Numbered from the stretch's first letter, positions 15,101-49,083 are shown. The stretch is DNA of 64,000 bases from Candidatus Taenariivivens baikalensis (GCA_009691445.1 SICL01000003.1:25834-89833); one strand, 5' to 3'. Notes: a model not told the origin generated them from the letters alone. Numbers and translations are program-made.

Positions 15101-18100
15101 TTAAAAAACTCAAGGACCTTCTCGTGGGTTATGAAGAATATGTCGCCGTGAAACTAAGTCCTGAGAGCGCCATGATTGCATTGAAACAATTAATTCCTCC
15201 TCACCTTTTCGGAAATACTCGTAAAATAATGGGCGCAAAGTTAATCGGTGCGATCATCCAGGAGACTCAGACTTGGGAACTTCTTACTCCATCCTTGAAT
15301 ACTGCGCTGATGTTCAATGCTGAGTTAATGATCGATTTTATGAAGGTGTCGCCCCCCAAACTCGATTCATGGACGCAACCGAATAAGAATCTGGACAAGA
15401 AAAAAGCAATAACGCTAGCGGATGCTCAATCGATGCTGGAATTGACCATAGAGGAACGACAAACAAATAGAACAACAGCCACTTTTATTATGAAAGAAGA
15501 TGGGATTTCCTTTACTGACATGATCGAAGCCGGATATAAAATTCTCGCCCAGGAAGATCCTCGAATTTCAAGAGACATAGTCTTCATTTCTCTCAATGGG
15601 AAAGTGTTTGCTAATGTTGCAGAATGCTTCGCCGTCCGAATGAAGGCAGGCGACAGGGCTCTCCTTACTTATCTCCGCTCAGAGGTGAGGACAAAGAAAA
15701 TTGTGGGACAGGATATTTCAACCCGGGTTAATCCATTACGTTCTGCAACAGTTCCCGCTGAACGGTTTCAACCCGCGTCAAAGTCCCACCAGGAACTTCG
15801 AAGACATGATCCGATTGCAAAGAGGTTAACGCCCCTAAAAAAACCGCAGGCGAAGGCGGGGCCCAATCTACCCCCAAATAATCGCTCCAAAGCGAGTATG
15901 AAACAGACGCCCGGAGAGCTGATCCAGCTCGCGAATGACTGGCTTGGGATGCATCTGTTAGTTTCCGAGCATGGAGTGACGTCCACGATTCACGTGGTTC
16001 TGGACTCGACGATCCAAAGGTCGACCGCGAGTCGAAAAGAGTATGATAATTCTATAGGGAACAACGTTGATTTTAATATTACTATCCGGGTGCCGACAGC
16101 CCAAATCACATCCGTGACAAAGCTTATAGCCCAGATTGATGGTGCCTTGAAAAGCAAGGGATTAGACGTCAGCACTCCCTCTCCCCACATTCCGGCAGAA
16201 GGAGAGATTTCCTGGTCTAGGAATCTGAAATCGGATATGAAATTTGACTTTGGACAAAATGCTTCTGATGAGGCGATTGGGGAAATGACGCAAAAGATTA
16301 ACAGGATTTTGAGGCGGCATCCCTTTGCCGGCTATAAGAATCTCTTTGCCGAACAGACACGCCATGAATTCTACGATAGTCATTTTGATGTGGAGATCTT
16401 GCCGGCCGGTGAACCTACTGTCGATCAGCCGAGAGGAGGGTATGTTGTGTATTCCTGGTGGAGTGGTATGCTCATTCAGGTGCGCGGGAACTTACTCACG
16501 GGTCCCAAGTGGAAGAAGAAGCTCGTGGAGGAAGTTATCAAACAATTTAGAAACTATGTGACCCGCTATAAAATGCGATTTTATGCACCAGCTTTAAAAA
16601 GAATTATACTCAAAGATCCGCCCTATCAAGGGCACTACTGGGGGGATCCTGACAGCGAACAGTGGAAGAGCTATCTAAGCAGTACGCAGGCACACGTAAA
16701 ACAAATTGAAGCCAAACTTAGAACGTTATTAAAGCCCCCCCCCGCAGTCAAGCGAGCTGAAGTGAGGACTCAAAACGATCTGGATCAGATGACCAATTAT
16801 CAAGATGTTGATATTTCGCAGATAGGCACGCACATCCGTGCGGAGCTGCGAAGTATCAATCTAAGCAATGCAGCAATGTCAACCCTCCGCCGAATGTTGA
16901 GTTTGACGGAAGCGGAACTGAACCCTCAAGGTTTGACAACGAGTAAGGTCTCAGCTATATATGTTTCTCCGGATGAGCGTGTTGCTATTGTGTTGCCGGG
17001 TATGTTGACGAGGGTGGAAGGTCAGACAGACCCACAACTTGTAAAAATCTTTCATTTAGTAGGCGCGGAAGAGGTCCAAAGTCATGGTGTACCGAGTAAT
17101 ATAAAGGATGTGTTGTTTCAAAATGGTGGCTTTACAGTCAGTTATTGGGATCCAACAAAAACGCCTGAAACCTTCCAAATTCTGGATCAAAAGCCGTGGG
17201 TTCAAAAAGTTGAAGACCGCTCCGAGGTGAGAAGTAAGAAGGCGACCGAGAGCACATTATCCGGAGGCCATACGAAAGTAGTTAAGCCACGCTTTGCGGC
17301 ATCGGCGAAAAAAAATGCTTCGGATTTTAATCTCCCCCCCGCTCAAAGGGAGCGCAATAAGAACTTGAAGAATGATTCGCCCCAGGACCGATCTGAGATT
17401 CGGAGAATTATTTCGGATGAGGTATTACGCGTGGTTTGGGCAGGAATGACAGGAGAGCCTGCAGAAAATGTTTCTTCCAAATCAGTTGGCCCTTTGACCA
17501 AAGTTTCCGCAAACGAGGCCGCTGAAATGATCATTGCGTTGAGTGAAACCTACTTCCAAAATCACGCGGCTGAAGTAACGGCATTCAGACAAACCGATCA
17601 AGTTTTAGCGGGCAGTGCTCAAAGGATTGCGGCGAAGATTGCGAGCCTCAAACAAACGGTTGTGATTCGCCAGACGCTTACAAATGAACAGCTGAAAGCA
17701 AGCGGTGATCCGCAGGCAGCCGTCCGTCAATGGATGAAAGCTGCCGGAAATTTAGCGGCATCCACCGATAAACTTTTGATTCACGTGACGCTTCCTGCCA
17801 ATTTCAGATTTAAAAATCTGGACTATAACCGGCTTGCCGGCTGGAAGGTCGTACCGACAGGGGACGGGGGATACGCGGTGGTTAATTCCACAGTGGATAC
17901 AAACGCCATTAACTTTAACAGCCTTATTCCCACACTAGTGATTTCTGATGAAGCGCTTGATCAAACCCAGGAAACACTCATTTCCGGCACCGACGCGCAT
18001 GGAAATAATCTGACACTGAAACCTGCTGATTTTGCCAATATTCTGACGGCGGGTGCCGGTTTTATTGCGGATAAACTTTCTTTGCGAAGCTGGATTGTTT

Positions 18101-18213
18101 CCAAAGGTTCGATTTCTTTCTTTGAAGATCAAAATGCCCTGGCTCATGCTGTTGATGCTGCACGTCTGATTCAAAGAGCTTTGGCTTCCAGAAGAACTGC
18201 GTACTCGGCGTAA
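6181..18213 (+). CDS. giant (4010 aa) secreted/membrane-associated multidomain protein with TraB/GumN/TIKI-like N-terminal region, embedded DnaJ J-domain and one internal TM helix
   Basis: uninterrupted 12 kb ORF; N-terminal signal-like peptide ([26 protein letters not shown]); [14 protein letters not shown]...VQTVGVEGA and later [19 protein letters not shown] resemble the GTxH...AGHL signature of the TraB/PrgY/GumN family; J-domain with HPD motif ([31 protein letters not shown]) at nt about 10234-10440; hydrophobic helix [22 protein letters not shown] at nt about 14540-14610; GTG start at 6181 (alternative ATG 6202). Confidence 0.75.
6640..6703. repeat. Family-B palindromic insert (agcaaggag.../...ctccatgct) in-frame inside the 4010-aa gene
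   Basis: agcaaggagcaaggag ... ccatgctccatgct is an imperfect inverted repeat; related copies at 7071-7137, 8061-8152 and 30586-30660. Confidence 0.6.
6790..6828. repeat. Family-C repeat (gaagttagaag iterations) in-frame in the giant gene
   Basis: gaagttggaagttagaagtaagaagttagaagaag; related to copies at 7466-7520, 7572-7659, 7884-7968. Confidence 0.6.
7071..7137. repeat. Family-B palindromic insert in-frame (gcgcatagcgcatag ... cttagcgctatgctctatgc)
   Basis: clear inverted repeat flanking about 30 nt; encodes ...FALSAMLYA... Confidence 0.65.
7466..7520. repeat. Family-C palindromic insert in-frame (ggttagaagtcggaggttggaagttggaag ... cttcacttcaaactcc)
   Basis: inverted repeat of the gaagtt/aacttc motif. 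Confidence 0.55.
7572..7659. repeat. Family-C palindromic insert in-frame (gaagttagacgttagaagttcgaagttagaag ... ccaacttcaaacttcaaacttc)
   Basis: long imperfect inverted repeat; arms encode [11 protein letters not shown] and NFKLQTS. Confidence 0.7.
7884..7968. repeat. Family-C palindromic insert in-frame (gaagttagacgttagaagtttgaagttagaag ... ccaacttccgacctctaacttgcaacttc)
   Basis: near-identical left arm to the copy at 7572; right arm inverted. Confidence 0.7.
8061..8152. repeat. Family-B palindromic insert in-frame (cagagagcatagtgcagacc ... ggtctgactctatgccctatgcccttagctctatgc)
   Basis: inverted repeat gcagacc/ggtctgac and gagcatag/ctctatgc; encodes ...MPYALSSMH... (compare MPSALSSML in the nuclease gene at 30586-30660). 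Confidence 0.7.
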
Positions 18214-18853: not shown

Positions 18854-19810
18854 TTATGTGGTCGTTTCCTGAGTAGCGCTGGTCCCACTGTTTGAAGAAT
18901 CAGAATTCATAGTCCCGCCGCCTTGCTGCCCTTGCTGCTGATAATTTCCTTGCGGTGGCGGACGACGAGGACGCTTTTTCTTTTTATGAGGAGGCGGCAT
19001 CGTCCCGCCCTGGTCCTCACTTATCTCACTGCTGCTTTCAGAATCTGAACTTTCTGATTCTGAAATCGCTTCACTCGATTCCGTGGAGCTCCCAGACGAT
19101 GCGCTTTCCGTCATGCCTTCCTGCGACCCTTCCTGCATTCCTTCTTGAGAAGGAGGCATCATTCCCGATCCGTCGCCGCCTTGCATTCCTCCACCATTCA
19201 TTCCGCCACCGGGTCCCATTCCCATTTGCCCTTGGCCACCGCCATTTTGACCACCGTTCATTCCACCATTAGGCCCCCCCTGCATTCCGCCAGGACCACC
19301 GCCGTTCATACCTCCGCCTCCAGGACCACCACCGTTCATGCCTCCACCTGGGCCACCCATCCCGCGACCTCCGGGACCACCACCGTTCATACCTCCGCCA
19401 GGTCCACCCATTCCGCCACCGCCGCCAGGACCACCACCGTTCATACCTCCGCCTGGGCCGCCCATTCCGCCACCGCCACCAGGACCACCACCGTTCATGC
19501 CTCCGCCTGGGCCGCCCATTCCGCCACCGCCACCAGGACCACCACCGTTCATGCCGCCGCCTGGGCCGCCCATTCCGCCACCGCCTCCAGGACCACCGCC
19601 GTTCATGCCTCCGCCAGGTCCGCCCATCCCGCCACCGCCGCCGCCGCCTTGCATACCTGGACCACCGCCTCCGGGGCCGCCACCACCGCGCCGTTCACCG
19701 CCGCCGCCGCCGCCACCACCGGGCCCACCGCCGCCAGGTCGGGCTTCAAGCGAGGTGACAAAAACAAGATTGGAAATAATTGCGAGCGCAATCAGGGAAG
19801 GACGCTTCAA
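18854..19810 (-). CDS. secreted glycine-rich low-complexity protein with tandem 19-aa repeats (GGMGGPGGGMNGGGPGGGG) and acidic Ser/Glu tail
   Basis: signal peptide MKRPSLIALAIISNLVFVTSLEA; >=6 near-identical 57-nt tandem units; chosen over the plus-strand Pro-rich shadow ORFs because of the signal peptide and convergent terminator. Confidence 0.55.
   Translation of the reverse strand: MKRPSLIALAIISNLVFVTSLEARPGGGGPGGGGGGGGERRGGGGPGGGGPGMQGGGGGGGMGGPGGGMNGGGPGGGGGMGGPGGGMNGGGPGGGGGMGGPGGGMNGGGPGGGGGMGGPGGGMNGGGPGGGGGMGGPGGGMNGGGPGGRGMGGPGGGMNGGGPGGGGMNGGGPGGMQGGPNGGMNGGQNGGGQGQMGMGPGGGMNGGGMQGGDGSGMMPPSQEGMQEGSQEGMTESASSGSSTESSEAISESESSDSESSSEISEDQGGTMPPPHKKKKRPRRPPPQGNYQQQGQQGGGTMNSDSSNSGTSATQETTT
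19290..19640. repeat. 57-nt tandem repeat array (coding, inside the Gly-rich protein)
   Basis: ccgccaccgccaccaggaccaccaccgttcatgcctccgcctgggccgcccattccg repeated head-to-tail. Confidence 0.8.
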
Positions 19811-20032: not shown

Positions 20033-20143
20033 GTCATTGCGAGGCCCGCGCTTTGGCGGAGACCTGCCTCGCCGGCAGGCGGGCGCGGCAATCCCGGAGC
20101 ATAACCCGAGATTGCTTCGGTCACTTCGTTCCCTCGCAATAAC
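20033..20143. repeat. Family-R composite palindromic repeat, intergenic (upstream of hisI)
   Basis: gtcattgcgaggcccgcgctttggcgg...cggcaatcccgg...cccgagattgcttcggtcacttcgttccctcgcaataac; about 80% similar to the copy at 45050-45190. Confidence 0.75.
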
Positions 20144-20224
20144 AAATGATCAGATCATTATGTATCCCCTTGACACACCTAGAGGATATCGGCATACTTC
20201 TGGCAATACAAATAGGAGAAAAAA

Positions 20225-20602
20225 ATGCATTCCTTCAAATTCAATGATCAAGGCCTTTTACCCGTCATTATTCAGGACTCTGAAAACGGAGAAGTCCTCA
20301 TGCTCGCCTATATGGATAAAATCGCCATTGAGCGGACCCTTTCCGAGAAAAAGAGCGTCTTCTATTCCCGTTCGCGCAACAAATACTGGGTCAAGGGGGA
20401 GAGCTCAGGCCACGTGCAAGCCGTTCTTCTGGCTCTAACAGACTGCGACAGCGATACCATTCTGATTAAGGTCACGCAAAAGGGAGGCGCCTGCCATCTT
20501 GGTTACCGGAGCTGTTTTGTTCATGAACTGGACAGCAAGGGCGATATTTCCCGCGTGACTCAGGAGAAATTTTTTGATCCGGATACCGTCTATAAAAAAT
20601 GA
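20225..20602 (+). CDS. hisI: phosphoribosyl-AMP cyclohydrolase HisI
   Basis: LLPVIIQD...GEVLMLAYM...YSRSR...WVKGESSGH...DCD.D..L..V.Q.GGACH.G..SCF conserved HisI motifs. Confidence 0.9.
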   Translation: MHSFKFNDQGLLPVIIQDSENGEVLMLAYMDKIAIERTLSEKKSVFYSRSRNKYWVKGESSGHVQAVLLALTDCDSDTILIKVTQKGGACHLGYRSCFVHELDSKGDISRVTQEKFFDPDTVYKK

Positions 20603-22074
20603 TTCTGTCTCCCGATTTTTCCACTTTTTCCAGGCTCGCCCGAAAGGGGAATCTGATTGCGGTTCAATTTTCCATCCCCGCAGATCTTGAAACTCCAGTC
20701 TCCGCTTATTTAAAACTCGCTCACAAAGAAGAACATTCGTTTTTGCTTGAATCCGCAGAACAAGGTGAAAAGGTCGGGCGCTACTCATTCATCGGGTTAA
20801 AACCCAGTTCTGTCATTTCGAGCGAAGCGAAGCAATCTCAGGCAAGAAAGATTGCTTCGTCGCTTACAGTTCCTTGCAATGACACAATCCTGGACCTGCT
20901 TGAAAAAAATATTTCCAAATTCAAACTTGCTAATCCCGAAACCCTGCCTGATTTCTGCGGCGGTTACGTCGGCTTTCTGTCGTATGAAAATGTCCGGGAT
21001 TTTGAACAGGTCAAACTGCAGGAAAAACCGGGGCCGAAAATCCCTCAATCCGTTTTTTTTCTGACTCGTGAATTCCTGGTCTTTGATCATTTCCGTAAAA
21101 ATCTTTCCATTGTGATTCTCGCCGACACCGGTTCATCCGCATCTCTGAAAACGGTGTATGCCCAGACACAAGTGAAAATCGAAAGCTATCTCAAGAAACT
21201 CTCGGCACCTCTAAAACAAACCACCACCGCTCGAAGCTCCAAAAGTCGCTTTGTTTCGAATATGAAACCCGCGCAGTATTACGCCAAGGTCAACCGCATC
21301 AAGGAATACATCCGCGCAGGGGATTGCATCCAAACCGTACTTTCCCAGCGTTTTCAGATTCCGGCATCGGGTGATGATTTTCAAATTTACCGTGCCCTTC
21401 GTTCGATTAATCCGTCGCCTTATATGTTTTATTTTCGCTCCGGAGATCTGCGGCTCATCGGATCGTCTCCGGAACTTCTCGTCAAGAAAAAGGGGAGGAT
21501 GGCAGAAGTGCGTCCCATTGCCGGCACAAGACCCCGCGGTAAAAATCAGGAAGACGATCAGCATCAGGAAGAAAATCTCAAGCGCTCTAAGAAAGAAGCA
21601 GCGGAACATTTAATGCTCGTCGATCTTGGCCGCAATGATTTGGGCCGCGTTTGCGAGTTCAGTACCATCCAAGTGAAAAATTTTGCGCGCGTCGAGCGTT
21701 ACTCTCATGTCATGCATTTGGTCAGCGATGTCGAGGGACGATTGAAGTCGGGGAAGACCGCTTTTGATTTACTGAAAGCAACGTTCCCGGCAGGGACAGT
21801 GACCGGAGCTCCCAAAATTCGTGCGATGGAAATCATCAATGAACTGGAGCCCGAAAAACGCGGGCCTTATGCCGGATGCCTTGGCTATTTCAGTTTCAAT
21901 CAGAATATGGATATGTGCATCACAATCCGCACCTTGGTAAACGATGGGAAAAAGATTTATCTTCAGGCGGGAGCTGGAATCGTCAAAGACTCCAATCCTC
22001 GAAGAGAATATCAAGAGACCGTCAACAAGGCCAAAGCACTGCTGAAGGCCGTCGAAATTAGAAATGATTTTTAA
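20599..22074 (+). CDS. trpE: anthranilate synthase component I TrpE
   Basis: [21 protein letters not shown]-terminal and [44 protein letters not shown]-terminal chorismate-binding signature; 4-nt overlap with hisI. Confidence 0.9.
20812..20868. repeat. Family-R palindromic repeat inserted in-frame (57 nt, 19 codons) in trpE
   Basis: tgtcatttcgagcgaagcgaagcaatctcaggcaagaaagattgcttcgtcgcttacag; translated [22 protein letters not shown] immediately after the conserved [10 protein letters not shown] motif. Confidence 0.8.
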
Positions 22075-22092
22075 ATAGCACGCACAATGTTT

Positions 22093-22122
22093 GTCATTGC
22101 GAACAAAGCGAAACAATCTCGA
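22093..22122. repeat. Family-R half-repeat, intergenic trpE-trpG
   Basis: gtcattgcgaacaaagcgaaacaatctc. Confidence 0.6.
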
Positions 22123-22139
22123 TTTGGAATTTAAACTTT

Positions 22140-22736
22140 ATGTTACTCGTCATCGATAACTACGACTCCTTTACCTATAACCTAGTCCAGTATCTCGGGG
22201 AGCTTAAGGCTGCACCCGTGGTCTACCGCAATGACCAGATCACGATTGAGCGCATCAAAAAAATGAAACCGGCTCAGATTGTGATTTCACCCGGACCGTG
22301 CACGCCCAAAGAGGCGGGGATTTCTCGTGACGTGATCCGTGCTTTCAGCGGAAAAATTCCGATCCTCGGCGTCTGCCTTGGGCATCAATGTCTCGGGGAT
22401 GTGTTCGGAGGAAAAATCATCCGCGCCAAAAGAATCATGCACGGGAAAACCTCACCGATTCATCATAAAAATACGGATATCTTCCAAGGCCTGAAAAATC
22501 CCTTTGAAGCGACGCGTTACCATTCGCTTTTGATTGAAAATAAATCCTTTCCATCGAAGGAACTCCAAATCACAGCCTGGACCAAGGAGAAAGAAATTAT
22601 GGGTGTCGCGCATAAATCGCATCCAACCTGGGGCGTTCAGTTTCATCCGGAATCGATTCTCACGACCGAAGGCATGAAACTCCTGAAAAATTTCCTTGAG
22701 CTTTCAAAGAAATTCCACAAAAAAAAGTTGTCATGA
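22140..22736 (+). CDS. trpG: anthranilate synthase component II / glutamine amidotransferase TrpG
   Basis: [26 protein letters not shown] catalytic Cys, HPES His/Glu. Confidence 0.9.
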
Positions 22737-23887
22737 AAATCAGCGATACTTTTGCTTCATTACTTGCCGGGCAAGATCTTTCCCTCAAAGTTTCCTGCTG
22801 GATTTTTCGGAATCTTTTTTTATCGTCATTGCGAGCAACGCAAAACAATCTGACTCAGAGTGTCATCCTGAGTGCAACGAAGGATCTCAATTCTGAGATT
22901 CTTCACTCCGTTCAGAATGACAAAAAACGTCAGATTGCCACGGCCGTCAAAAAAAATGACGAGCTTGCAATGACAAACGCTGAAGCCAAAAATCTACTGA
23001 TCCTTCTGGCACGCAAGGGCGAGGCACCGGATGAAATTGCAGGATGTCTTGCCGCCCTCAAATCTCTGGAGAATCCGCGAAAGACCGGGATCCTTCATCT
23101 GATGGACACCTGCGGCACCGGGGGAGATGGCAGCCACTCGGCTAATATCTCCACACTCGCGGCATTGGTCATTGCCGGAGCCGGAGGAAAAATTGCCAAA
23201 CACGGAAACCGGAGCCTTTCCTCAAAGTGCGGAAGCTCGGATCTCCTTGAAGCTCTTGGGGTCAATCTGAATGCTGGAGAAAATAAAATGGTTCAGTCCA
23301 TCCGCGAATCCGGGATCGGCTATTTTCATGCGCCCTTTTTTCATCCCGTTTTTTCCAGAATGCAGCCGCTGAGAAAATCCCTGGGCATCCGAACGATATT
23401 TAACTTTCTAGGCCCCCTGGCTAATCCGCTTGAACTTTCGTATCAGCTGATTGGGGTTTCAAAAAAAGAAATGGTAAAAACTTTTGCGGAAGTGCTTCGA
23501 CAAAAAAAAATCCACCACGCTCTAGTCTGTCACAGTGAGAATGGCCTCGATGAGCTGACCACCACTGCCGCTGCCTTTTGTGCTGAGGTGCAAAAGGGAA
23601 GGATTCAATATTTTACTCTCGAGCCAGGAAAGTTGGGATTCAAAAAGGCATCCGTATCCGATCTTCGAGGTGGAAATATTTCACGAAACAAACAACTGGC
23701 CCTGAAACTTCTTTCCGGGAAAACCAAAGACGCTCTTCGTGATACCGTCATCCTCAACGCCGGCGCCGGTCTGTGGATCAGCGGAATTTCGAAAAATTTG
23801 AAAGACGGAATAACCTTGGCACGGAAATCACTGGATAATGGCAATGCGTATTCAGCGCTCCAAAACTTGGTAAAAATTAGTTGCTAA
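22733..23887 (+). CDS. trpD: anthranilate phosphoribosyltransferase TrpD (N-terminal helix region carries an in-frame repeat insert)
   Basis: LLAGQDLS...[20 protein letters not shown]...[17 protein letters not shown]...GNRS..S..GSSD signature; overlaps trpG stop by 4 nt. Confidence 0.85.
22824..22910. repeat. Family-R palindromic repeat inserted in-frame in the trpD 5' region
   Basis: cgtcattgcgagcaacgcaaaacaatctgactcagagtgtcatcctgagtgcaacgaaggatctcaattctgagattcttcac; encodes [29 protein letters not shown] between the two conserved N-terminal helices. Confidence 0.75.
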
Positions 23888-24033
23888 TAACCAAGATACA
23901 AGGTACAAGAAACAAATAATTTCCAATTTTAAAAATAAAATTTCAAATGACCGTTTTTAAAATTAAAAATTGGAATTTTAATCATTTTTTGTATCTTGTT
24001 TCTTGTATCTTGAAATTTAAATAGGGCAATTTT

Positions 24034-24843
24034 ATGACTATTTTAGATGAAATTATTATTCGCCGAAAAAAGGACCTAGCGGAACTCAAGGAGAGATTTC
24101 CTTTAACGCGCCTCTCTCAGGCCGTAGAAAGTCAGAAGCGCTCCGAGCCCCGCTCCTTTCGCAAAGCCATTTCCAATCCCAAGCGGATTAATTTGATCTG
24201 CGAACTGAAGAAGGCTTCTCCGTCTGAAGGCTTGCTCCGTGAGGATTTCCAACCGCTTCGCATTGCCACTCATTTTGAATTTGCAGGCGCAGCCGCTATT
24301 TCCGTTTTAACCGAGCCGCATTACTTTAAAGGCCGGACCAGTTATTTGAAAACCGTTCGGCAGGTGACGAAGCTTCCGCTGCTGCGCAAAGACTTCATTT
24401 TTGAGACTTACCAGCTTTATGAAAGCCGGCTTTTGGAGGCCGACGCCTTTTTACTGATCGCCTCGATTCTGACTGAGAAAGAGATCAGGAACCTGATTGT
24501 GCTGGGACAAAAACTTGAGATGGATGCGCTCGTGGAAGTTCACAACGATGAAGACCTGCAGAAGGCACTTTCTGCCGGAGCCTTGATCATTGGTATCAAT
24601 AACCGGGATCTACGCACGTTTGCGACCGATCCTTACCGCGCCCAAAATCTTCTCCCGCATATTCCCAAGAATATTTCCGTGGTGATTGAAAGCGGAATCA
24701 AAACACATGAAGAAATTATGAGTTACAAAAGCCTAGGCGTTCATTCTTTTTTAATCGGAACCGCGCTCATGCGCGCCGACAACATCATCGACGCAATTGA
24801 GAATCTGCTGGGGCCTTCCTATAGAAAGGGACGGGTCTCATAG
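24034..24843 (+). CDS. trpC: indole-3-glycerol phosphate synthase TrpC
   Basis: ICELKKASPSEG, LRKDFI, INNRDL, TALMRA motifs. Confidence 0.85.
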   Translation: MTILDEIIIRRKKDLAELKERFPLTRLSQAVESQKRSEPRSFRKAISNPKRINLICELKKASPSEGLLREDFQPLRIATHFEFAGAAAISVLTEPHYFKGRTSYLKTVRQVTKLPLLRKDFIFETYQLYESRLLEADAFLLIASILTEKEIRNLIVLGQKLEMDALVEVHNDEDLQKALSAGALIIGINNRDLRTFATDPYRAQNLLPHIPKNISVVIESGIKTHEEIMSYKSLGVHSFLIGTALMRADNIIDAIENLLGPSYRKGRVS

Positions 24844-24936
24844 ACGATCTCATCATCGCCAAGTTGTGTTGAATATTTTCAATCAATATTTGACAGAACA
24901 GCGAAAGTGTCTGAGAACCGTCCCTGAGGGGAACAC

Positions 24937-25593
24937 ATGACCAAAGTAAAAGTTTGCGGAAACACTAACGCCGAGGATGTGACGCTCGCAATTTCACTCG
25001 GCGTGGATTATTTGGGATTCATCTTCGCGGAAAGCAAACGCCGCATTGAACCCACGATGGCGGCCAGAATCATCACGGCTGTTCCTGATTTCAAAAATTT
25101 CGTCGGAGTATTTGTGAATCATCCCAAAAAAGACGTGGAGCAAATCTCCCAAGATCTTGGGATAAAAATTCTCCAGTTTCACGGCGATGAGACGGCGCTC
25201 TATTGCCAATATTTTATGGACCATGGATTTCAGGTCATCAAAACCTTCCGCATCAAAGATGCGATGAGTCTCAAGCGGATGGATGAATACAATGTCGCGG
25301 CCTTTCTTTTTGATGCTTTTCAAAAAGATTCGTCAGGGGGTACCGGAATTCCCTTCGACTGGAACCTCATTGAAAAAAATCCTTATGTTCAGGAAAAATT
25401 ATTTCTTGCCGGCGGCCTGAATCCTGACAACCTGGAAGACGCGATCCAAAAAATCCATCCCTATGCCGTGGATGTGGCAAGCGGTGTGGAAAAATCTCCA
25501 GGCAAAAAAGATCCGGTGCTTCTTGAACGTTTTATTTCTATCGCGAAAAATTCTTTAGGATTGTCATCCGGGCCCCCGAGCCGGGATCCATGA
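24937..25593 (+). CDS. trpF: phosphoribosylanthranilate isomerase TrpF
   Basis: VKVCGNTNAEDV...GVDYLGFIF...LAGGLNPDN pattern. Confidence 0.85.
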   Translation: MTKVKVCGNTNAEDVTLAISLGVDYLGFIFAESKRRIEPTMAARIITAVPDFKNFVGVFVNHPKKDVEQISQDLGIKILQFHGDETALYCQYFMDHGFQVIKTFRIKDAMSLKRMDEYNVAAFLFDAFQKDSSGGTGIPFDWNLIEKNPYVQEKLFLAGGLNPDNLEDAIQKIHPYAVDVASGVEKSPGKKDPVLLERFISIAKNSLGLSSGPPSRDP

Positions 25594-25610
25594 CTTACGC
25601 GTCATTGCGA

Positions 25611-25675
25611 GCAAAGCGAAGCAATCTCAGGCTTTAGGATTGCCGCGTCGCCCTCAAGGGCGCATCGTCGTGACA
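25611..25675. repeat. Family-R palindromic repeat, intergenic (trpF to histidine kinase)
   Basis: gtcattgcgagcaaagcgaagcaatctcaggctttaggattgccgcgtcgccctcaagggcgcatcgtcgtgac. Confidence 0.8.
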
Positions 25676-26850: not shown

Positions 26851-26905
26851 GATCCAAGAAACAATGGATCTTGTTTCTTGTATCTTGGTTATTCATTTGA
26901 GGTAA

Positions 26906-28279
26906 TTGATGTCTGCTTTTTCAAAAATCCTAATTGTTGACGACGAAAAAAATACCTGCGAAGGCCTGGCTCAATTTCTGGAAGCCCTCGATTATGATGT
27001 CCTCACGGCTTCAAGCGGAGAGGACGGCTGGAAAATTTATCAGCAGGAAAAACCCGATTTGATTTTGAGCGATATTAAAATGCCGGGAATGGGCGGCATT
27101 GAGCTGCTTGAAAAAATCAAACGCGCGAATCCTCGGGAACTCGTCATCTTGCTGACCGCTTACGGCTCCGTGGAAGACGCGGTTCAGTCCATGAAAAAGG
27201 GCGCCTATTACTATCTCACCAAGCCGGTGAATCTCGAGGAGCTGGAACTGCTCGTCAAAAAAGCCCTCAAAAGCCGCGAACTCGAAGAAGAAAATCAGGA
27301 ACTGAAGACCGCGCTTTTTTCCGAGCGGTTTGAAGAAGGTGAAATTCAGGGGAATTCATCGGTCATCAAAAATCTCCTGAACAAAGTCGATCAGGTAGCC
27401 AAATCAAATGCGACAGTCCTCATTGAAGGAGAAAGCGGTACGGGCAAAGAGCTGATTGCTCACAGGATTCATGAAAAGAGTGGGCGCGCTCATCATTCTT
27501 TTGTCGCCGTTCACTGCGCGGCCTTGACCGAGACACTTCTGGCGAGTGAGCTTTTTGGCCACGAGCGCGGAGCCTTTACCGGTGCTTACGAACGAAAGAT
27601 CGGACGTTTTGAAAAAGCCCATCAAGGAACCCTGTTCCTGGATGAAATCGGAGAGATCTCTCCCGAAACTCAGGTGAAATTACTGCGCGTTCTTCAGGGC
27701 GGGGAATTTGAACGCGTAGGCGGAACCAAAACCATCAAAGTGAATGTTCGTCTGGTTTGTGCGACCAATAAAAATCTTACGGATGAAGTGGCCAAAGGAA
27801 AATTCCGTGAAGATCTCTATTACCGAATCAATGTGATTTATCTGAAAGTGCCGCCGCTCCGGGAGCGCAAGGAAGATATCCCGCTTCTCGCTCATTCCTT
27901 CCTCAAGCATTTTGCACGTCTCAATGTAAAAAAAATCACAACCTTGGATGCCGACGCCCTGGAAGTCCTCAAAAAATATCCCTGGCCCGGAAATATCCGC
28001 GAGCTCAAAAATATCCTGGAGCGGATGGTCGTGCTCAGCACCAAAGATAAAATCACCCTGGATCTTGTCCCCGAGGATATTCGGCGTTCTTCAGTTTCCG
28101 GTTCTCCGGCCTTTGCTCCTGCTTCTGCTCCTGTTCCCGCTTCCATCCCCGAAATGGAAAAAGAACTGATCATCCGCACCCTCGCCGAAGTCAAAGGCAA
28201 CAAATCCATCGCCGCCAAGAAGCTCGGCATTTCGCGTCGGACTCTGTACCGGAAACTCGACGAATATAGGCTGGAGTAA
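26906..28279 (+). CDS. sigma-54-dependent response regulator (NtrC family: REC-AAA-Fis HTH)
   Basis: REC Asp (LILSDIKMPGMGG); GESGTGKE Walker A; GAFTGA sigma54 contact motif; C-terminal HTH ISRRTLYRKL. Confidence 0.9.
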   Translation: MMSAFSKILIVDDEKNTCEGLAQFLEALDYDVLTASSGEDGWKIYQQEKPDLILSDIKMPGMGGIELLEKIKRANPRELVILLTAYGSVEDAVQSMKKGAYYYLTKPVNLEELELLVKKALKSRELEEENQELKTALFSERFEEGEIQGNSSVIKNLLNKVDQVAKSNATVLIEGESGTGKELIAHRIHEKSGRAHHSFVAVHCAALTETLLASELFGHERGAFTGAYERKIGRFEKAHQGTLFLDEIGEISPETQVKLLRVLQGGEFERVGGTKTIKVNVRLVCATNKNLTDEVAKGKFREDLYYRINVIYLKVPPLRERKEDIPLLAHSFLKHFARLNVKKITTLDADALEVLKKYPWPGNIRELKNILERMVVLSTKDKITLDLVPEDIRRSSVSGSPAFAPASAPVPASIPEMEKELIIRTLAEVKGNKSIAAKKLGISRRTLYRKLDEYRLE

Positions 28280-28360: not shown

Positions 28361-28825
28361 ATGAAGAAACAAACCCTCGATTTTGAAATGAATGCCCAGT
28401 TCCGTCCCCAAGAGGAATTCCCCGCCTTTTTAAAAGACCGGCCTCCGCTTTCAGAGCAGATCAAGCAAATGCGTGAAGCGCTTGGGATGACTCAGTCTCA
28501 GCTTGCACAACGGGCTGGGATCAGTCAAAGCCGCTTGGCACAAATCGAGGGAAATCCGGACCAAGACCTGCAGGTCTCTACGCTCAAAAAATTGTCCGCC
28601 GCACTTGGATGTCATCTTCTGGAAGCACTTGTTCCCAATCAGGAAATTTCAAAAACGCTGGATGAGAAAGCAGGCCGGGTTGCCGCCAAGCTGATGAGAA
28701 TTTCTTCCGGCAATGCCGCACTTGAACTCCAGCTTCCGCAAAAAGCGTATCTGGATTTTCAATTCAAGCAAATGAAGGAAGAAATTCTTTCCAAATACCG
28801 CAAAGATTTATGGAAAGAACTCTAA
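28361..28825 (+). CDS. XRE-family HTH protein (mobile mystery protein A-like)
   Basis: MTQSQLAQRAGISQSRLAQIEG helix-turn-helix; overlaps and precedes a Fic-domain gene, the arrangement described for the mobile mystery protein A/B pairs. Confidence 0.7.
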   Translation: MKKQTLDFEMNAQFRPQEEFPAFLKDRPPLSEQIKQMREALGMTQSQLAQRAGISQSRLAQIEGNPDQDLQVSTLKKLSAALGCHLLEALVPNQEISKTLDEKAGRVAAKLMRISSGNAALELQLPQKAYLDFQFKQMKEEILSKYRKDLWKEL

Positions 28826-29421
28826 GCGGAACACCGGTTCCGGCCGAAACCCAGCTCAAAGATATTTCAGGCTTGATCCCAAAGCACGTGCGCACCAGGG
28901 AATCTCTGGATCGTGCCGAATTCGAAAATATCACCGCGATTTCGCGGAAATATTTTTTGAGCGTTCCCAGCCGTAAAAAAGCGCCGTTTACCTTCAAATG
29001 GTTCTCGGCACTTCACCGGGAAATGTTCGGAGAGGTTTGGGAGTGGGCCGGTCAGATCCGCACCACGGATGTCGGGATCGGATGCGCTCCGTCCAAAATC
29101 GGTGCTGAATTGCACAAACTGATTTACGATCTTGGTCTGTGGGAAAAAGAAAAGAAAGATGCTTTTGAAATCGCGGTCCGGCTGCATCATCGCCTGGTCT
29201 GGATCCATCCCTTTAACGGGGGCAATGGACGCTGGGCAAGAACCGCGGCCAATATTTATCTGGCGCAGTCCGGCCTTCTACTTTTTGAATGGCCGGAAGA
29301 CCGGATCAAAATTGAAGGTCGGATCCGAAAAGAATATGTCGAGGCTTTACGCAATGCCGACCACGGCGACATTCATCCTCTCCTTCGCTTTCACAAACGG
29401 TATTGGAAGGAGAAGAGGTGA
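28810..29421 (+). CDS. Fic/Doc family protein (mobile mystery protein B-like)
   Basis: Fic motif HPFNGGNGRWAR (HxFx[DE]GNGRxxR). Confidence 0.85.
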   Translation: MERTLSGTPVPAETQLKDISGLIPKHVRTRESLDRAEFENITAISRKYFLSVPSRKKAPFTFKWFSALHREMFGEVWEWAGQIRTTDVGIGCAPSKIGAELHKLIYDLGLWEKEKKDAFEIAVRLHHRLVWIHPFNGGNGRWARTAANIYLAQSGLLLFEWPEDRIKIEGRIRKEYVEALRNADHGDIHPLLRFHKRYWKEKR

Positions 29422-29518: not shown

Positions 29519-30736
29519 TTGCCTGTCATGGAATACGGCGTACTAAGTACTGTGGAAAATAAAAACGCCAGAACTCAACGTGGTACGCAGCGCGCAATAC
29601 TCAGTACTGGTTATAGTTCCTACGCCGAACTTCGTGACAAGGTTCGGAAAACCCTTCTCGAAGGCCAGCGTAAAATTGAACTCGCAAAGGTCCAGACTTA
29701 TTGGGATACCGGCAAACACATTAATGAGCACCTTCGGATTCATGAAGGGCGCACCGAGTACAAAAAGAAAACGCTGATCAGGCTGGGTAAAGATCTTGAT
29801 CTGGACGACAGTGTCCTTCGGCGGTGCGCAGAATTGAAGGAGGGATTCCCGGATTTACCAATTCGTGCCGGCTGGCACAAATCTGGTAATAATAGAATAA
29901 TCTCTATTAAAAAATATCCCTGGGCCTGCTTACACTGGAGTCATTTTCGGGCACTTCTTCCTCTTGAGGACCTGAAAACCCGCTACGAACTTGCCGATCA
30001 AGCCGCAGAAAAAGGCTGGATTGCCGAAGAGCTCGAAGCAAAGGTGAGGAAGATCAATGAAGATATCAGAGAAAAAAATGGCGGCGGGGGAAAACATCCC
30101 GTTCGTCCCTCGGAGCTGCTGACGCCCAAACTCGGTAAAACCGGCATTTATCAAATGATTCAGGACGGGGACTCGCTGACCGTGGATCTTGGGTTCACGT
30201 CTTACTGCAAACTTCCCAAGAATCAGGCAAGCAAATTCAAAGCCGGGGATTACTGCCTTTGGAAAGGCGACGCGCCGCCGAAAAAAATCCAGGGTGCGCC
30301 TTCCGATTTATTTACTTACGAAGCCGAAGTGCTGAAAGTCGTGGACGGGGATACGCTCTGGCTCAAGATCTGGCTCGCGGACGATCTGTGGCTGAAGGAA
30401 AAGGTACGGCTGCGCGGTATCAATTGTCCGGAGATGGATACGAGGGAAGGGAAGGATGCGAAAAAATTCGTGGAGTCCGTCATTGCGAGCAGTGCGAAGC
30501 AATCTCGCATCCTTATTGCTACGACGAAGCCCGACAAATACGATCGCTATCTAACGGATGTGTTTTTGCCAATCAGCATGGAGCAGAGAGCAAGGAGCAT
30601 AGAGAATAAATCTTTGAACTCCATGCCCTCTGCCCTAAGCTCTATGCTTTTTCTAAACAACGAACTCCTCAAGCACGGCTTGGCCGAGAAGAAAACCAAT
30701 TACTCGTTTAGCGATTGGGGAGATTTGGAACGCTGA
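29519..30736 (+). CDS. fusion protein: DUF1016 (YhcG-type) N-terminal domain + staphylococcal-nuclease-like (SNase/thermonuclease) C-terminal domain; carries two in-frame palindromic inserts
   Basis: N-term: LHWSHFRALLPLEDLKTRYELADQAAEKGWIAEELEAKV matches the DUF1016 N-domain consensus (LPWSHYR.LL...D...R.FY...A...GWS.R.LE.QI); C-term: VVDGDTLWL...VRLRGINCPE...GKDAKKFVE...YDRYLTDVF is the SNase fold pattern (GDT...RL.GIDaPE...G.eA......V......DrYGR.la.V). Confidence 0.7.
   Translation: MPVMEYGVLSTVENKNARTQRGTQRAILSTGYSSYAELRDKVRKTLLEGQRKIELAKVQTYWDTGKHINEHLRIHEGRTEYKKKTLIRLGKDLDLDDSVLRRCAELKEGFPDLPIRAGWHKSGNNRIISIKKYPWACLHWSHFRALLPLEDLKTRYELADQAAEKGWIAEELEAKVRKINEDIREKNGGGGKHPVRPSELLTPKLGKTGIYQMIQDGDSLTVDLGFTSYCKLPKNQASKFKAGDYCLWKGDAPPKKIQGAPSDLFTYEAEVLKVVDGDTLWLKIWLADDLWLKEKVRLRGINCPEMDTREGKDAKKFVESVIASSAKQSRILIATTKPDKYDRYLTDVFLPISMEQRARSIENKSLNSMPSALSSMLFLNNELLKHGLAEKKTNYSFSDWGDLER
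30479..30530. repeat. Family-R palindromic repeat in-frame inside the SNase domain
   Basis: gtcattgcgagcagtgcgaagcaatctcgcatccttattgctacgacgaag; encodes VIASSAKQSRILIATT. Confidence 0.75.
30586..30660. repeat. Family-B palindromic insert in-frame near the 3' end of the nuclease gene
   Basis: gagcagagagcaaggagcatagag ... ccatgccctctgccctaagctctatgc; same family as the three copies in the 4010-aa gene. Confidence 0.7.
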
Positions 30737-30737
30737 T

Positions 30738-31325
30738 TTATTCCAGATCCCGATGAAACCCGATTCGCCGTTTTGGTTTCTCCGGTTCCGGTGCCGGCTC
30801 AAGCAGCTGCTTCAAGGCATCAAAGACGACCTTAAACTGCAGGTCATACTTTTTCTCCATTGCCTCAATTTTCCGGCGCAGTTCTTTGTGCGCATCCAGC
30901 ATCTGTCTGATTTTCGTAAAGGTTCGCATGATTTGAATATTCACCTGAATCGCCCGTTTGCTTTTCAAAACACTTGAGAGCATGGAAACACCCTGTTCAG
31001 TAAAAGCGTAGGGAACTGCCCGTCTCAATCCTCCCCAACTTGAAGTCACAAATTGTGACTTCAAGTTGGTAAACTCTTCCGCGCTCAATTGAAACATGAA
31101 GTCCGAGGGAAACCTGTCCTGATTTCTTTTGACGGCTTGGATCAGTGCTTTTGGTTTCACCTGATAAAGATCAGCTAAATCGAGACTAAGCATGACCTTC
31201 TGATTCCGAAGAAAATAAATCTTTTGTCGAAGGGTTTCGTGGGAAATAGAAGCAGTATTTGAATCTCGAGTTTTCATTTTGGGCCTCCTGGAGTTGTTGG
31301 ATGTTTTACTTACTCCGAAAGCCAA
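30738..31325 (-). CDS. ORF6N-domain protein (KilA-N/antirepressor-like), copy 1
   Basis: KVMLSLDLADLYQV...QAVKRNQDRFPSDFMFQL...VTSSWGGLRRAVPYAFTEQGVSMLSSVLKSKRAIQVNIQIMR matches the ORF6N consensus. Confidence 0.8.
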   Translation of the reverse strand: MAFGVSKTSNNSRRPKMKTRDSNTASISHETLRQKIYFLRNQKVMLSLDLADLYQVKPKALIQAVKRNQDRFPSDFMFQLSAEEFTNLKSQFVTSSWGGLRRAVPYAFTEQGVSMLSSVLKSKRAIQVNIQIMRTFTKIRQMLDAHKELRRKIEAMEKKYDLQFKVVFDALKQLLEPAPEPEKPKRRIGFHRDLE

Positions 31326-31454: not shown

Positions 31455-31610
31455 GCTAGAAAAAGATCGTTGATCAGAAAAAAGGGTGAGCGGGTGAATG
31501 AGTATGCGAGTGCGCGCGTTGAAATTAACCCGTTAACCCTTGCGCTTTTTCATTTAATTTCACCTTCGGCGGGTTTACTCTGTCCCTCGGGCGGGGACTG
31601 TCCCCTTGAA
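31455..31610. repeat. Family-H hairpin repeat, copy 1 (long form)
   Basis: ...gatcgttgatcag...gcgcgcgttgaaattaacccgttaacccttgcgctttttcatttaatttcaccttcggcgggtttactctgtccctcgggcggggactgtcccctt; about 90% identical to the copy at 32460-32600; the core hairpin ctgtccc-tcgggc-ggggacag recurs at 40520-40595. Confidence 0.8.
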
Positions 31611-31945
31611 GTTCTCAAGCACGGCTTGGCCGAGAAGAAAACCAATTACTCGTTTAGCGATTGGGGAGATTTGGAACGCTGATTTATTCCAGATCCCGAT
31701 GAAACCCGATTCTCCGTTTTGGTTTCTCCGGTTGCGGTGCCGGCTCAAGCAGCTGCTTCAAGGCATCAAAGACGACCTTAAACTGCAGGTCATACTTTTT
31801 CTCCATTGCCTCAATTTTCTGGCGCAGATCTTTGTGCGCATCCAGCATCTGTCTGATTTTCGAAAAGGTCCTCATGATTTGTATATTGACTTGAATGGCG
31901 CGTTTGCTTTTCAAAACACTTGAAAGCATAGAGACGCCTTGTTCC
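31606..31945. repeat. segmental duplication: copy of 30672-31010 (3' tail of the nuclease gene plus 3' half of the ORF6N gene)
   Basis: about 340 bp at >90% identity read directly from both places (ctcaagcacggcttggccgagaagaaaaccaattactcgtttagcgattggggagatttggaacgctgatttattccagatcccgatgaaacccgattc...). Confidence 0.85.
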
Positions 31946-32459: not shown

Positions 32460-32600
32460 CAGCAAAAGATCGTTGATCAGGAAACCCGAGTTCACGAGTG
32501 CGCGGGTTGAAATTAACCCGTTAACCCTTGCGCTTTTTCATTTAATTTCCACCCTCAGCGGGTTTACTCTGTCCCTCGAGCGGGGACTGTCCCCTTGAAG
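32460..32600. repeat. Family-H hairpin repeat, copy 2 (long form), 3' of the subtilase giant gene
   Basis: agatcgttgatcaggaaacccgagttcacgagtgcgcgggttgaaattaacccgttaacccttgcgctttttcatttaatttccaccctcagcgggtttactctgtccctcgagcggggactgtcccctt. Confidence 0.8.
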
Positions 32601-32901
32601 TTTTCGATGACAATGATAGCCTCGACGATTTCAGAAGTGTGTTCCGAAGGAACCTCGCCGATGGCGTTAGAAATTTACCGCCAGACCAGGGCTTTTGGAA
32701 ATACCTTTGTTTTTTTAGTGGGCGGCATGGCCACGGATTACACGGTGATCGGGCTTCTTTGGAAAAACCTCAGAAAAAAAACAGGGCTTTGGATGCTTGT
32801 AATCAACATTCCCCAGATTATTTTCTTCGGCTGGATCTTTAATCGATTTTGATTTTTGGTAATCGGAAAGCGTTGCCCAAAATAGACTCTGAAGTTTCAC
32901 C

Positions 32902-45041: not shown

Positions 45042-45049
45042 GGTTTTGG

Positions 45050-45190
45050 TCGTTGCGCGAGAGGAGTCCCCGCAGGGCGACGAAGCAATCTCGGGCTACA
45101 ACCCGAGATTGCTTCGATGCGCGCGCGCAATGTCCAACCCTCGTGTCATTGCGAGTCCCGCGCTTTGGCGGCGACGCGGCAATCTCAAGT
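45050..45190. repeat. Family-R composite palindromic repeat, intergenic downstream of dnaK
   Basis: gtcgttgcgcgag...cgacgaagcaatctcgggctacaacccgagattgcttcgatgcgcgcgcgcaatg...gtcattgcgagtcccgcgctttggcggcgacgcggcaatctc; shares cccgagattgcttcg and gtcattgcgag[gt]cccgcgctttggcgg with the copy at 20033-20143. Confidence 0.8.
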
Positions 45191-48127: not shown

Positions 48128-49083
48128 AGTCAATCGTGTCATTGCGAACAAATCTAAGCACTCTGACTCTTTTCTTAGTCTGTTCCCTCAGCGCTTTTGC
48201 CGCTGTGCCGAAATCATCTTCGTCGATTTCGGTTAAGGCAGAAGTCGACCACGCATTTATCACGATTGGAGATCCCGTCACCTACAGCGTCACCATCAAG
48301 CACGCGGCCGATGTGTTGGTGCTTTCCACACTGAATCCGCCGTCCGAAGAGACGTTCAAACTTAAAAACATGCAAGAGATTCACCGCAAGGAAGGCGCCT
48401 TGACCGTGGAAGGCCGCAAATACACGCTGACCTGCCTACGGCTTGGAGAATTCATCCTGGATCCTCAGGAAATTCAGTACCGGGCCGGTGGGGGAGAAGT
48501 CAAAACGATTCGAACTGAAAAAATTTATGTCACGGTAAAAAGCGTCGCCGAAGGAGAAGAGAAAAAGGACATTCGCGGAATTAAATCTGTGGTCCGCCTT
48601 GAGATTTCTCTCATTCCTTGGATCATTACCGGAATCGTCCTTTTAATTTGCGTCGTGGGATTCATGATTTATCAAAAAATTAAAAAGAGCAAGGGTCAGC
48701 CGCCCAAGCCAGAAACCAGGCTTTCCCTGGAAGAACAAGCCCTTCTCGATCTCGACCAGCTTTACGACTCTGATTTTCTCCGAAATGGGAAGATCAAGGA
48801 ATACCATTTACGACTCTCGGAAATTTTAAGGGTGTATTTTGAGCACCGCTATGACATTCTGGCGGCTGAATCCACCACCAGTGAAATCAGCCACTTGCTT
48901 CGGCAAAAAAATATGGACCTCAAGCTTCGCGAGAAAATTGAGACAGTGCTTGAGGCCGCTGATCTCGCTAAATTCGCCAAATGGAAACCCGATCCCCAGA
49001 TGATTAAAGAGAATTTTAAAAAAGCCAAGGAAATTGTTGAGGATTCTAAAGTCGTTCCCATTCAAGAGGGAGGAGCGGCATGA
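48124..49083 (+). CDS. hypothetical membrane protein of the Bat/MoxR aerotolerance-type operon (signal + TM; BatD-like?)
   Basis: signal LTLFLVCSLSAFAA; TM ISLIPWIITGIVLLICVVGFMIY; operon context only. Confidence 0.4.
   Translation: MKSIVSLRTNLSTLTLFLVCSLSAFAAVPKSSSSISVKAEVDHAFITIGDPVTYSVTIKHAADVLVLSTLNPPSEETFKLKNMQEIHRKEGALTVEGRKYTLTCLRLGEFILDPQEIQYRAGGGEVKTIRTEKIYVTVKSVAEGEEKKDIRGIKSVVRLEISLIPWIITGIVLLICVVGFMIYQKIKKSKGQPPKPETRLSLEEQALLDLDQLYDSDFLRNGKIKEYHLRLSEILRVYFEHRYDILAAESTTSEISHLLRQKNMDLKLREKIETVLEAADLAKFAKWKPDPQMIKENFKKAKEIVEDSKVVPIQEGGAA

Follow-up and report, generated by a model that had tools for sequence, protein, structure and literature searches.

Family R, a dispersed palindromic repeat, has colonised the his-trp operon of Candidatus Taenariivivens baikalensis, where two lineage-specific copies lie in frame and free of stop codons within trpE and trpD. 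This had been proposed in a first-pass annotation of the DNA considered here, a 64,000-nt stretch of a metagenome-assembled genome (MAG; GCA_009691445.1, SICL01000003.1:25834-89833; hereafter the window), and was upheld by the analysis reported below. Family R is best explained as a non-autonomous, hairpin-forming dispersed repeat of the repetitive extragenic palindromic (REP) or REPIN (REP doublet forming a hairpin) type that spread in the hisI-trpEGDCF region of this genome, a reading to which we assign a probability of about 0.7.

A Family R half-unit comprises a Y-GTC tag, the core ATTGC, GAG, a variable arm, the complementary core GCAAT and the tail CTC. The common form consists of two inverted half-units with their tags outward, GTCATTGCGAG-arm-GCAATCTC-loop-GAGATTGC-arm-CTCGCAATGAC, in which the first base of the full unit, preceding GTC, is a pyrimidine (yGTCATTGCGAG). 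With one mismatch or fewer, the 11-mer GTCATTGCGAG was found 13 times against 1.1 expected for the 64-kb window, and no shuffle reached 13. A two-box half-unit pattern (GTCATTGCGAG with up to two mismatches, 4-50 nt, GCAATCTC with up to one mismatch) gave 15 matches against 0.33 in Markov controls; 13 of the 15 were convincing, while those at 19776 and 47366 are probably due to chance. These counts confirm that Family R exists as a palindromic repeat. Half of the repeat loci (5 of 10) lie inside the 5.6-kb operon, approximately 10 times the density of the remaining window (p ~0.002, a post-hoc Poisson estimate).

Repeat inserts in trpE and trpD

The inserts in the two tryptophan genes, and the parts of the larger one, are as follows.

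20812..20883, plus strand: full unit in trpE, 72 nt; RNA fold -25.3 kcal/mol, z = -4.0
22825..22974, plus strand: composite insert in trpD, 150 nt; fold -64.1 kcal/mol, z = -8.5
22825-22852 (left) and 22931-22974 (right), plus strand: the two Family R halves of the trpD insert
22862-22921, plus strand: sister-family unit nested in the trpD insert, 60 nt, 20 codons, GTCATCCTGAG...GGATCTC / GAGATTC...CAGAATGAC

The trpE copy measures 72 nt (24 codons) from end to end, rather than the 57 nt (19 codons) first claimed, and encodes residues V72-D95 in frame and without a stop codon. Its placement directly after a conserved motif, in the GRYSFIG region, was confirmed. The left half agrees with the family consensus at 27 of 28 positions, and the element is palindromic with its boxes in the family order. 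The closest orthologue (P0002, 474 aa, 76-79% identical) does not have the segment, and relative to it the window TrpE shows a net gain of 17 aa; the residues V-I encoded by GTCATT match the hydrophobic strand 'SVI' of P0002. Of 20 orthologues, 7 are short at this site, the closest among them, and the others carry an unrelated segment of approximately 18 aa. The site is therefore a natural variable-length region and indel hotspot, which makes the trpE copy less remarkable than it first seemed. An AlphaFold2 model built with the orthologue alignment (mean pLDDT, the predicted local distance difference test score, 82.6) shows V72-D95 as strands 71-76, 79-84 and 90-93, with the insert predicted to stand in place of the variable beta-meander that follows GRYSFIG.

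The trpD insert is larger than the approximately 30 aa given by the first-pass annotation, with a length of 150 nt (50 codons) and a gain of 47 alignment columns. It combines a 90-nt Family R unit with a sister-family unit of 60 nt that sits nested in the Family R loop, and the inner boxes of the Family R unit carry a compensatory pair of changes (ACAATCTG / CAGATTGC). The whole composite folds as a perfect nested hairpin. Only one of its six frames is open, and this is the frame that trpD uses. Since 90 and 60 nt are both multiples of three, two successive in-frame insertions are possible. All 18 orthologues examined (Omnitrophota, 336-363 aa, 48-59% identical) have a 47-column gap at this position, and the best 120 TrpD homologues are all much shorter than 384 aa; one cluster representative of 53 aa (P0242) proved unrelated to TrpD, a clustering quirk, and was set aside. 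The AlphaFold2 model of TrpD (orthologue alignment, mean pLDDT 90) is confident for the catalytic domain and puts the insert in the loop between two N-terminal helices, the location first proposed. Helix 18-51 is prolonged by the insert and the chain returns as helix 58-76 (pLDDT 53-77), giving a predicted protruding helical hairpin of low to moderate confidence. The Pfam N-terminal domain PF02885, found in most orthologues, was not detected in the window TrpD.

Homologous peptides at the same sites in orthologues would mark these segments as an ancient protein feature. None was found: repeat-derived peptides were absent from the 239 other homologues retrieved (119 TrpE and 120 TrpD), in agreement with the TrpD gaps and with the closest TrpE, which indicates that the inserts are young. 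That the segments are instead ancient, functional protein features with a mere resemblance to the repeat is scarcely credible. The similar length of the segment found at the same place in many TrpE orthologues would fit such an origin, as would the continuity of the modelled TrpE strands with the fold. However, the orthologous TrpE segments are not homologous to the insert, the TrpD insert has no counterpart in any of the 18 orthologues, and the trpE element is palindromic, with 27 of 28 consensus positions matched in its left half and the boxes in the family order.

A repeat-induced chimera, or another artefact of assembly or sequencing, might be suspected of a multi-copy repeat in a MAG, and was judged to have next to no probability. 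The identical 384-aa TrpD was assembled independently at least three times (SRR8561390, SRR8561391 and ERZ1305449), the copies are individually diverged and not collapsed, and the flanking reading frames continue perfectly through the inserts.

Removal or bypass of the inserts at the level of RNA or translation, by excision, editing or ribosomal hopping, was considered because the trpD composite places a hairpin of -64 kcal/mol within a coding region. If the inserts were removed, neither their frame nor their stop content would be under selection, yet the insert lengths (72, 90 and 60 nt) are all multiples of three and the frames in use are open, as are the in-frame copies in other phyla described below. 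No Rfam family, known ribozymes included, was found at the curated gathering thresholds in the whole window, and none fell on the repeats of the operon at E values up to 5. Such removal is thus highly improbable.

A further alternative is that trpE and trpD are young pseudogenes, or that the tryptophan pathway is dispensable, in which case nothing is being tolerated. The loss of PF02885 from TrpD points in this direction, exact excision of the inserts would leave both proteins shorter than any aligned orthologue, and a relaxation of selection could explain why one operon holds five repeat loci. Against this, all six operon ORFs (open reading frames) are intact, and the catalytic regions of TrpE and TrpD can be aligned with solved structures along almost all of their length (E = 5e-98 and E = 1e-70, respectively). 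Three separate inserts that are each a multiple of three, together with use of the only open frame of the trpD composite, would be unlikely without selection for a continuous protein. We regard decay of these genes, or a dispensable pathway, as unlikely.

Under the preferred reading, of a REP/REPIN-type repeat spreading in this genome, Family R would be a selfish element that multiplies within genomes by copying and inserting, presumably through a mobilising enzyme. The two inverted half-units could form a hairpin or cruciform of 70-110 nt. Most copies would remain intergenic, where the RNA hairpins that they form may have incidental effects on transcript stability. The intragenic copies that survive would be those that add whole codons, keep the frame open and fall at a permissive surface site, and the trpE, trpD and SNase-domain copies may be such survivors. 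The trpD site would later have received the sister-family unit in the loop of the first unit. Genes bearing inserts would be retained by purifying selection, and the intact sequences suggest that the modified TrpE and TrpD continue to be active. The inserts may then serve protein engineering as natural permissive sites and as example peptides, namely a helical hairpin and a substitute for a beta-meander.

Family R copies and their setting in the window

All of the copy positions listed in the first-pass annotation were found to hold Family R after small coordinate shifts. Thus, 22824 became 22825, 25611 became 25601 and 48140 became 48138; the copy placed at 45 was resolved into two half-units, and that at 45050 into a full unit beginning at 45049 with an extra half-unit beyond it. 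The copies outside trpE and trpD are as follows.

47-74, minus strand, and 75-113, plus strand: tags-inward (TT) pair of half-units, back to back, intergenic; fold -29.7 kcal/mol, z = -2.65
20033..20143: full unit, 111 nt, tags outward, upstream of hisI; RNA fold -51.2 kcal/mol, z = -2.9
22093..22120, plus strand: single half-unit, 28 nt, in the trpE-trpG spacer; no significant fold alone
25601..25672: unit directly 3' of trpF, left half intact, right half degenerate; fold not significant, z = -0.9
30479..30506, plus strand: half-unit in the SNase domain
45049..45134: full unit, 86 nt, outer boxes diverged, directly downstream of dnaK; fold -46.9 kcal/mol, z = -4.8
45145..45186, plus strand: half-unit, arm TCCCGCGCTTTGGCGG matching the arm of the 20033 copy
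48138..48165, plus strand: degenerate half-unit with 6 mismatches in 28 positions, at the 5' end annotated for a BatD-like ORF

A pyrimidine precedes GTC in 9 of 10 window copies. Full units folded better than their shuffles, most clearly those in trpE and at 45049 and the trpD composite. The long left arm of the 20033 unit includes CCCGCGCTTTGGCGG, an arm shared with the copy at 45145, 25 kb away, which fits copying within the genome. The peptides that recur in translations of the window ORFs, LLRFARNDR among them, were correctly traced to Family R, read in its three frames and in the reverse frames.

The operon hisI-trpE-trpG-trpD-trpC-trpF is compact and lies on the plus strand (20225-25593). 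The window TrpE shares 100% identity with an NCBI protein from a Candidatus Omnitrophica MAG, and TrpD is MSR76940.1. The genes, with the evidence for each assignment, are as follows.

20225..20602, plus strand: hisI (PRA-CH); ORF and Pfam; 4-nt overlap with the trpE start
20599..22074, plus strand: trpE, anthranilate synthase component I, 491 aa; ORF, Pfam and structure match
22140..22736, plus strand: trpG, glutamine amidotransferase subunit; position between trpE and trpD, with Pfam GATase recorded for an identical 198-aa product on another contig of the same organism
22733..23887, plus strand: trpD, anthranilate phosphoribosyltransferase, 384 aa; ORF, Pfam and structure match
24034..24843, plus strand: trpC (IGPS); Pfam recorded for an identical 269-aa product on another contig of the same organism
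24937..25593, plus strand: trpF; assigned by operon position and reading of the translation only

The remaining window is ordinary chromosome, with hisF, an SNF2 helicase, two giant ORFs, dnaK, a MoxR/Bat cluster, a CCA-adding enzyme, RmuC, RNase G and a secretin.

The third intragenic copy, claimed to lie inside the SNase domain of a nuclease fusion, is real. The half-unit at 30479-30506 encodes approximately residues 321-330 of a DUF1016_N-SNase fusion ORF (29519-30736), within the Pfam SNase match at 295-395, and is read as VIASSAKQS in frame and without a stop. A second palindromic family, of the GCATAGAGC type, is also present in this domain at 30571-30647, approximately 65 nt downstream of the Family R half-unit, where it is read as ISMEQRARSIENKSLNSMPSALSSM; two repeat families thus occupy one domain. 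Two others, of the GAAGTTAGAAGTT and GCATAGAGCATAGGGC types, have several in-frame copies within the first ~700 codons of a 4010-aa ORF (6181-18213), for example at 6634-6701, 6792-6828, 7107-7136, 7464-7660, 7884-7968 and 8048-8152. This indicates that Family R is not alone in the window in forming in-frame palindromes. The trpD-trpC spacer (23886-24022) is filled by a further palindromic family (CAAGATACAAGAAACAAGATAC...), which recurs at 26865-26919, 5' of a sigma-54-type regulator gene, and at 46137-46174.

Other repeated sequences of the window were also recorded. A 318-aa glycine-rich low-complexity ORF on the minus strand (18854-19810) contains a tandem array of a 54-nt repeat (19314-19642, 6.1 copies, 89% match), with proline-rich ORFs on the opposite strand. 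An adjacent pair of ORF6N-domain (Rha/antirepressor-like) genes shares 95% identity over 300 nt (30662-30961 versus 31608-31907). A 60-70-nt segment upstream of these genes (31500-31616 and 32488-32605) occurs a third time at 40529-40599, adjoining a 2539-aa ORF, and a Fic-domain gene (28810-29421) lies near the pair. A glutamine/lysine/aspartate-rich low-complexity repeat (51523-51958) was found within a 690-aa ORF (50065-52137) of the Bat/MoxR cluster.

Distribution, sister families and an insertion sequence in the boxes

The distribution of Family R was determined by a search with 27 specified bases of contigs representing one genome per species. At least 120 genome loci in at least 15 phylum-level groups were found, including Alpha- and Gammaproteobacteria, Desulfobacterota-type lineages, Nitrospirota, Planctomycetota, Chloroflexota, Patescibacteria, Bacteroidota, Elusimicrobiota, Zixibacteria, Margulisbacteria, Gemmatimonadota, Cyanobacteria, Omnitrophota and others. 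Carriers include the isolates Porticoccus sp. W117 and Pedobacter aquatilis, plasmids of Methylosinus trichosporium OB3b and Methylocystis rosea, on which the repeat is unannotated, and 40 IMG/VR viral contigs. One contig binned as Halobacteria (L046; CAVYHX/CAVYIJ, sample MFD03551) has a unit whose arm is the same as in gammaproteobacterial contigs from the same sample (L001 and L086), which suggests mis-binning rather than carriage by an archaeon.

Family R was also found in frame in other proteins, confirmed by Pfam: leucyl-tRNA synthetase, GMP synthase, a Mu-like portal protein on a viral contig and a PAS-GAF-HD signalling protein. The leucyl-tRNA synthetase of a Parcubacteria genome (L065:1023-3800, minus strand) has three repeat-derived in-frame inserts, namely a Family R unit, a CHCEESEGRRSNP-type relative and a canonical CGTC/dRS3-like pair (VIPAQAGIQ...DPRFHGDD). 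A gammaproteobacterial GMP synthase (GuaA) has a 78-nt Family R insert in its GATase domain, which appears clean to about one residue when judged against typical GuaA sequence patterns. Long stop-free frames across the units of the high-GC loci L115, L125, L134, L142, L146 and L156 were arginine-rich antisense artefacts and were left uncounted. Stop-codon depletion was modest (2.68 versus 2.02 open frames of six) and is no strong sign of a family 'designed' for compatibility with coding. Translations of Family R presumably also account for some spurious short 'hypothetical proteins' in metagenome annotations. Recognition of the family, which carried no label in the records examined, would tidy such annotations and account for disrupted domain assignments, among them the missing PF02885 of TrpD.

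Full units from the listed genome loci numbered 93 (136 with those from viral contigs), with lengths of 69-110 nt that were evenly spread over the three remainders of division by three (31/30/32). The interval between the cores comprises GAG and an arm of 9-44 nt, and arms are often small hairpins themselves or follow a cross-phylum consensus, GAGCGAAGCGACGAA. Flanks of the 93 units showed a palindromic bias only (yy|...|rr). Among 428 half-units, adjacent pairs had their tags outward (HH) in 159 cases, a count inflated by the choice of loci with an HH-type pattern, inward (TT) in 11 and in tandem (HT) in 24. The base before GTC was T in 225, C in 179, G in 13 and A in 11, so that 404 of 428 (94%) had a pyrimidine; GTC itself is invariant by construction of the search, and the conservation of the CTC tail is partly circular because it formed part of the pattern.

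The outer and inner cores co-vary. Of 47 distinct half-unit-like matches with an outer core other than TGC, 26 were exactly complementary between the boxes, against a chance expectation of 1/64, including TCT/AGA (12) and CCT/AGG (9). The core triplet therefore changes together in both boxes, which indicates that sister families exist.

One locus offered a candidate parent for Family R. At L007:653-1725 an IS256-family transposase (Pfam Transposase_mut; NCBIfam IS1249/Zn-binding variant, below cut-off) lies between two Family R units, and the repeats might then be MITEs (miniature transposable elements with inverted repeats), internally deleted derivatives of an IS1249-like insertion sequence (IS) with termini GTCATTGCGGG...CCCGCAATGAC, moved in trans by its transposase. 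In 8 of 9 metagenome relatives (41-100% identity) the outer-box sequence of Family R was present at the bounds, and in L173 no other parts of Family R were found near the IS. However, in three IS species with multiple copies encoding identical transposases, the copies match one another over the stretch GGG... to ...CCC and no further, which is also exactly the extent of collapsed contigs of ~1.07-1.1 kb. The flanks vary (ATTGC, GCAAT, GGAAT, ATTCT, AGGAT, AGAAT and ATTCC), and most copies show a 5-bp direct duplication within a repeat box, for example CTC GCAAT[IS]GCAAT GAC or GTC ATTGC[IS]ATTGC GAG, whereas the Family R units themselves have no such duplication. In a minority of copies the flanks are mixed, a pattern expected from recombination between IS copies. 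The duplications indicate that the boxes are the target of the IS and not its ends, and that the IS is not the source of Family R, whose derivation from it is very improbable; as a parent it was rejected. The IS is a Zn-finger variant (~300 aa, ~1.07-1.1 kb; L167-L175, L176-L202 and L007) with specificity for the outer boxes of Family R and its sister repeats, where it targets GTC|ATNNN|GAG with duplication of the 5-bp core pentamer. Its transposase has 1766 homologues at E <= 1e-10 among the candidates scored, most of them on contigs of about the length of the IS, and was not present in the window.

Several observations weigh against a REP/REPIN-type repeat that spread by insertion. No direct target-site duplication was visible at the flanks of the 93 units. 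No cognate transposase was found between the paired units of L006, L059, L050 and L124, where only housekeeping or phage genes were present, nor was any transposase found in the part of the window's ORFs that was scanned. Half-units alone fold no better than shuffles (z = -0.55 and -0.08), which leaves the REP-like stem weak, although pairing of the cores has the support of their co-variation. After exact excision TrpE would be 7-8 aa and TrpD 3 aa below the shortest aligned orthologue, and the events were therefore no clean additions; insertion came with a small deletion, or else native residues were replaced by the ends of the element, of which the V-I match to P0002 would be an example. The insertions and their consequences at the target sites are read from protein alignments only, and tolerance of the inserts by TrpE and TrpD, which are presumably active, is drawn from intact frames and conserved catalytic parts. 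Lastly, the near identity of 27-34 nt across phyla is hard to square with a purely selfish, drifting repeat and points to strong constraint or frequent transfer.

A tentative and rather doubtful extension is that Family R and its sisters form an undescribed pan-bacterial superfamily of four-box hairpins, GTCAT-NNN-GAG ... NNN-ATCTC, with a core that co-varies in the four boxes and with members in dozens of phyla, on phage contigs and on the contig binned as Halobacteria. On this reading the conservation, together with the lack of target duplication and cognate transposase and the presence of an IS that parasitises the boxes, would point to a mechanism of mobilisation or maintenance that acts across phyla and is possibly structure-guided or HUH-like; the stop-poor palindromes could then be a general source of hairpin-shaped peptides within essential enzymes.

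Comparison with known repeat systems

Family R appears to be a REP/REPIN/RPE-like element (RPE, Rickettsia palindromic element) of a family not found described. Its sequence was absent from the text and supplements of PMC3733652 and from the RepRanger paper, and a full-text literature search with the repeat as DNA, as RNA and as reverse complement, and with its peptides, returned unrelated primers only.

Among described groups the CGTC-tagged REP superfamily comes closest; Neisseria dRS3 and Rickettsia RPE-4 and RPE-6 belong to it (Di Nocera, De Gregorio & Rocco 2013; PMC3733652). These REPs are units of 20-40 bp with an unpaired CGTC tag (TGTC and CCTC are allowed), an 8-9 bp stem starting A-T then T-A, a 4-5 nt loop and the tail consensus CCA; HH dimers, which can fold as one hairpin, predominate, with TT dimers rare and HT dimers negligible, no dedicated transposase is known, and units occur in several phyla and occasionally within genes (PMC3733652). 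Family R resembles them in its (C/T)GTC tag, AT-initiated core, predominance of tags-outward dimers that can fold as one long hairpin, rarity of tags-inward dimers, singletons, intragenic units and presence in several phyla. A 3-nt tail is present as well, its conservation being partly circular as stated above. It differs in a core pairing of 5 bp (ATTGC/GCAAT) instead of an 8-9 bp stem, in having GAG and 9-44 nt in place of the 4-5 nt loop, in its tail, CTC and not CCA, and in half-units that have no significant fold of their own. In two loci, L170 and the leucyl-tRNA synthetase of L065, canonical CGTC REPs and Family R were nested together.

As in the REPIN/REP-RAYT system (RAYT, REP-associated tyrosine transposase), Family R forms inverted doublets that give a long hairpin, singletons that look like decayed doublets, and a high-copy, mostly extragenic population. 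In contrast, its tag is yGTC and not GTAG, no RAYT-like gene was present among the window ORFs scanned, and 27-34 nt are conserved across phyla, whereas REPs are usually specific to a species or genus. Known insertion sequences also target such repeats: IS1397 and ISKpn1 insert in bacterial interspersed mosaic elements (BIMEs) and IS110-family elements insert in REPs. The IS1249-like IS resembles these in its box specificity and differs in belonging to an IS256/IS1249-like family and in its 5-bp duplication.

The first-pass annotation had called the insertions MITE-like, which held only in part. Like MITEs, Family R has inverted repeats (11 bp outer and 8 bp inner), a size of 70-150 nt (69-110 nt for the full units), no coding capacity and dispersed copies, some of them fused in frame to genes. 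Unlike MITEs, it shows no direct target-site duplication at the flanks of the 93 units, no related autonomous IS with the same termini was found, and the REP/REPIN architecture fits it better.

RPEs reportedly, from work attributed to Ogata et al. in 2000, are palindromic repeats of ~100-150 bp that lie in frame in unrelated housekeeping genes at fold-compatible sites, with several families per genome. By this description Family R is similar, being palindromic, in frame and stop-free in trpE, trpD and the SNase fusion, and elsewhere in leucyl-tRNA synthetase, GuaA and the portal protein. It differs in its nested composite inserts, in its organisation into half-units and dimers, and in its occurrence in many phyla, here Omnitrophota, RPEs being described only from Rickettsia, an obligate intracellular alphaproteobacterium. 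In-frame palindromic repeats in genes have already been documented for Rickettsia RPEs (PMC10969869) and for REPs (PMC3733652). Should the modified TrpE and TrpD be active, then insertion of the RPE kind extends beyond Rickettsia to an uncultivated, free-living lineage with several palindromic families in frame, both in core enzymes and in a 4010-aa protein, and Family R behaves likewise in leucyl-tRNA synthetase and GMP synthase of other phyla.

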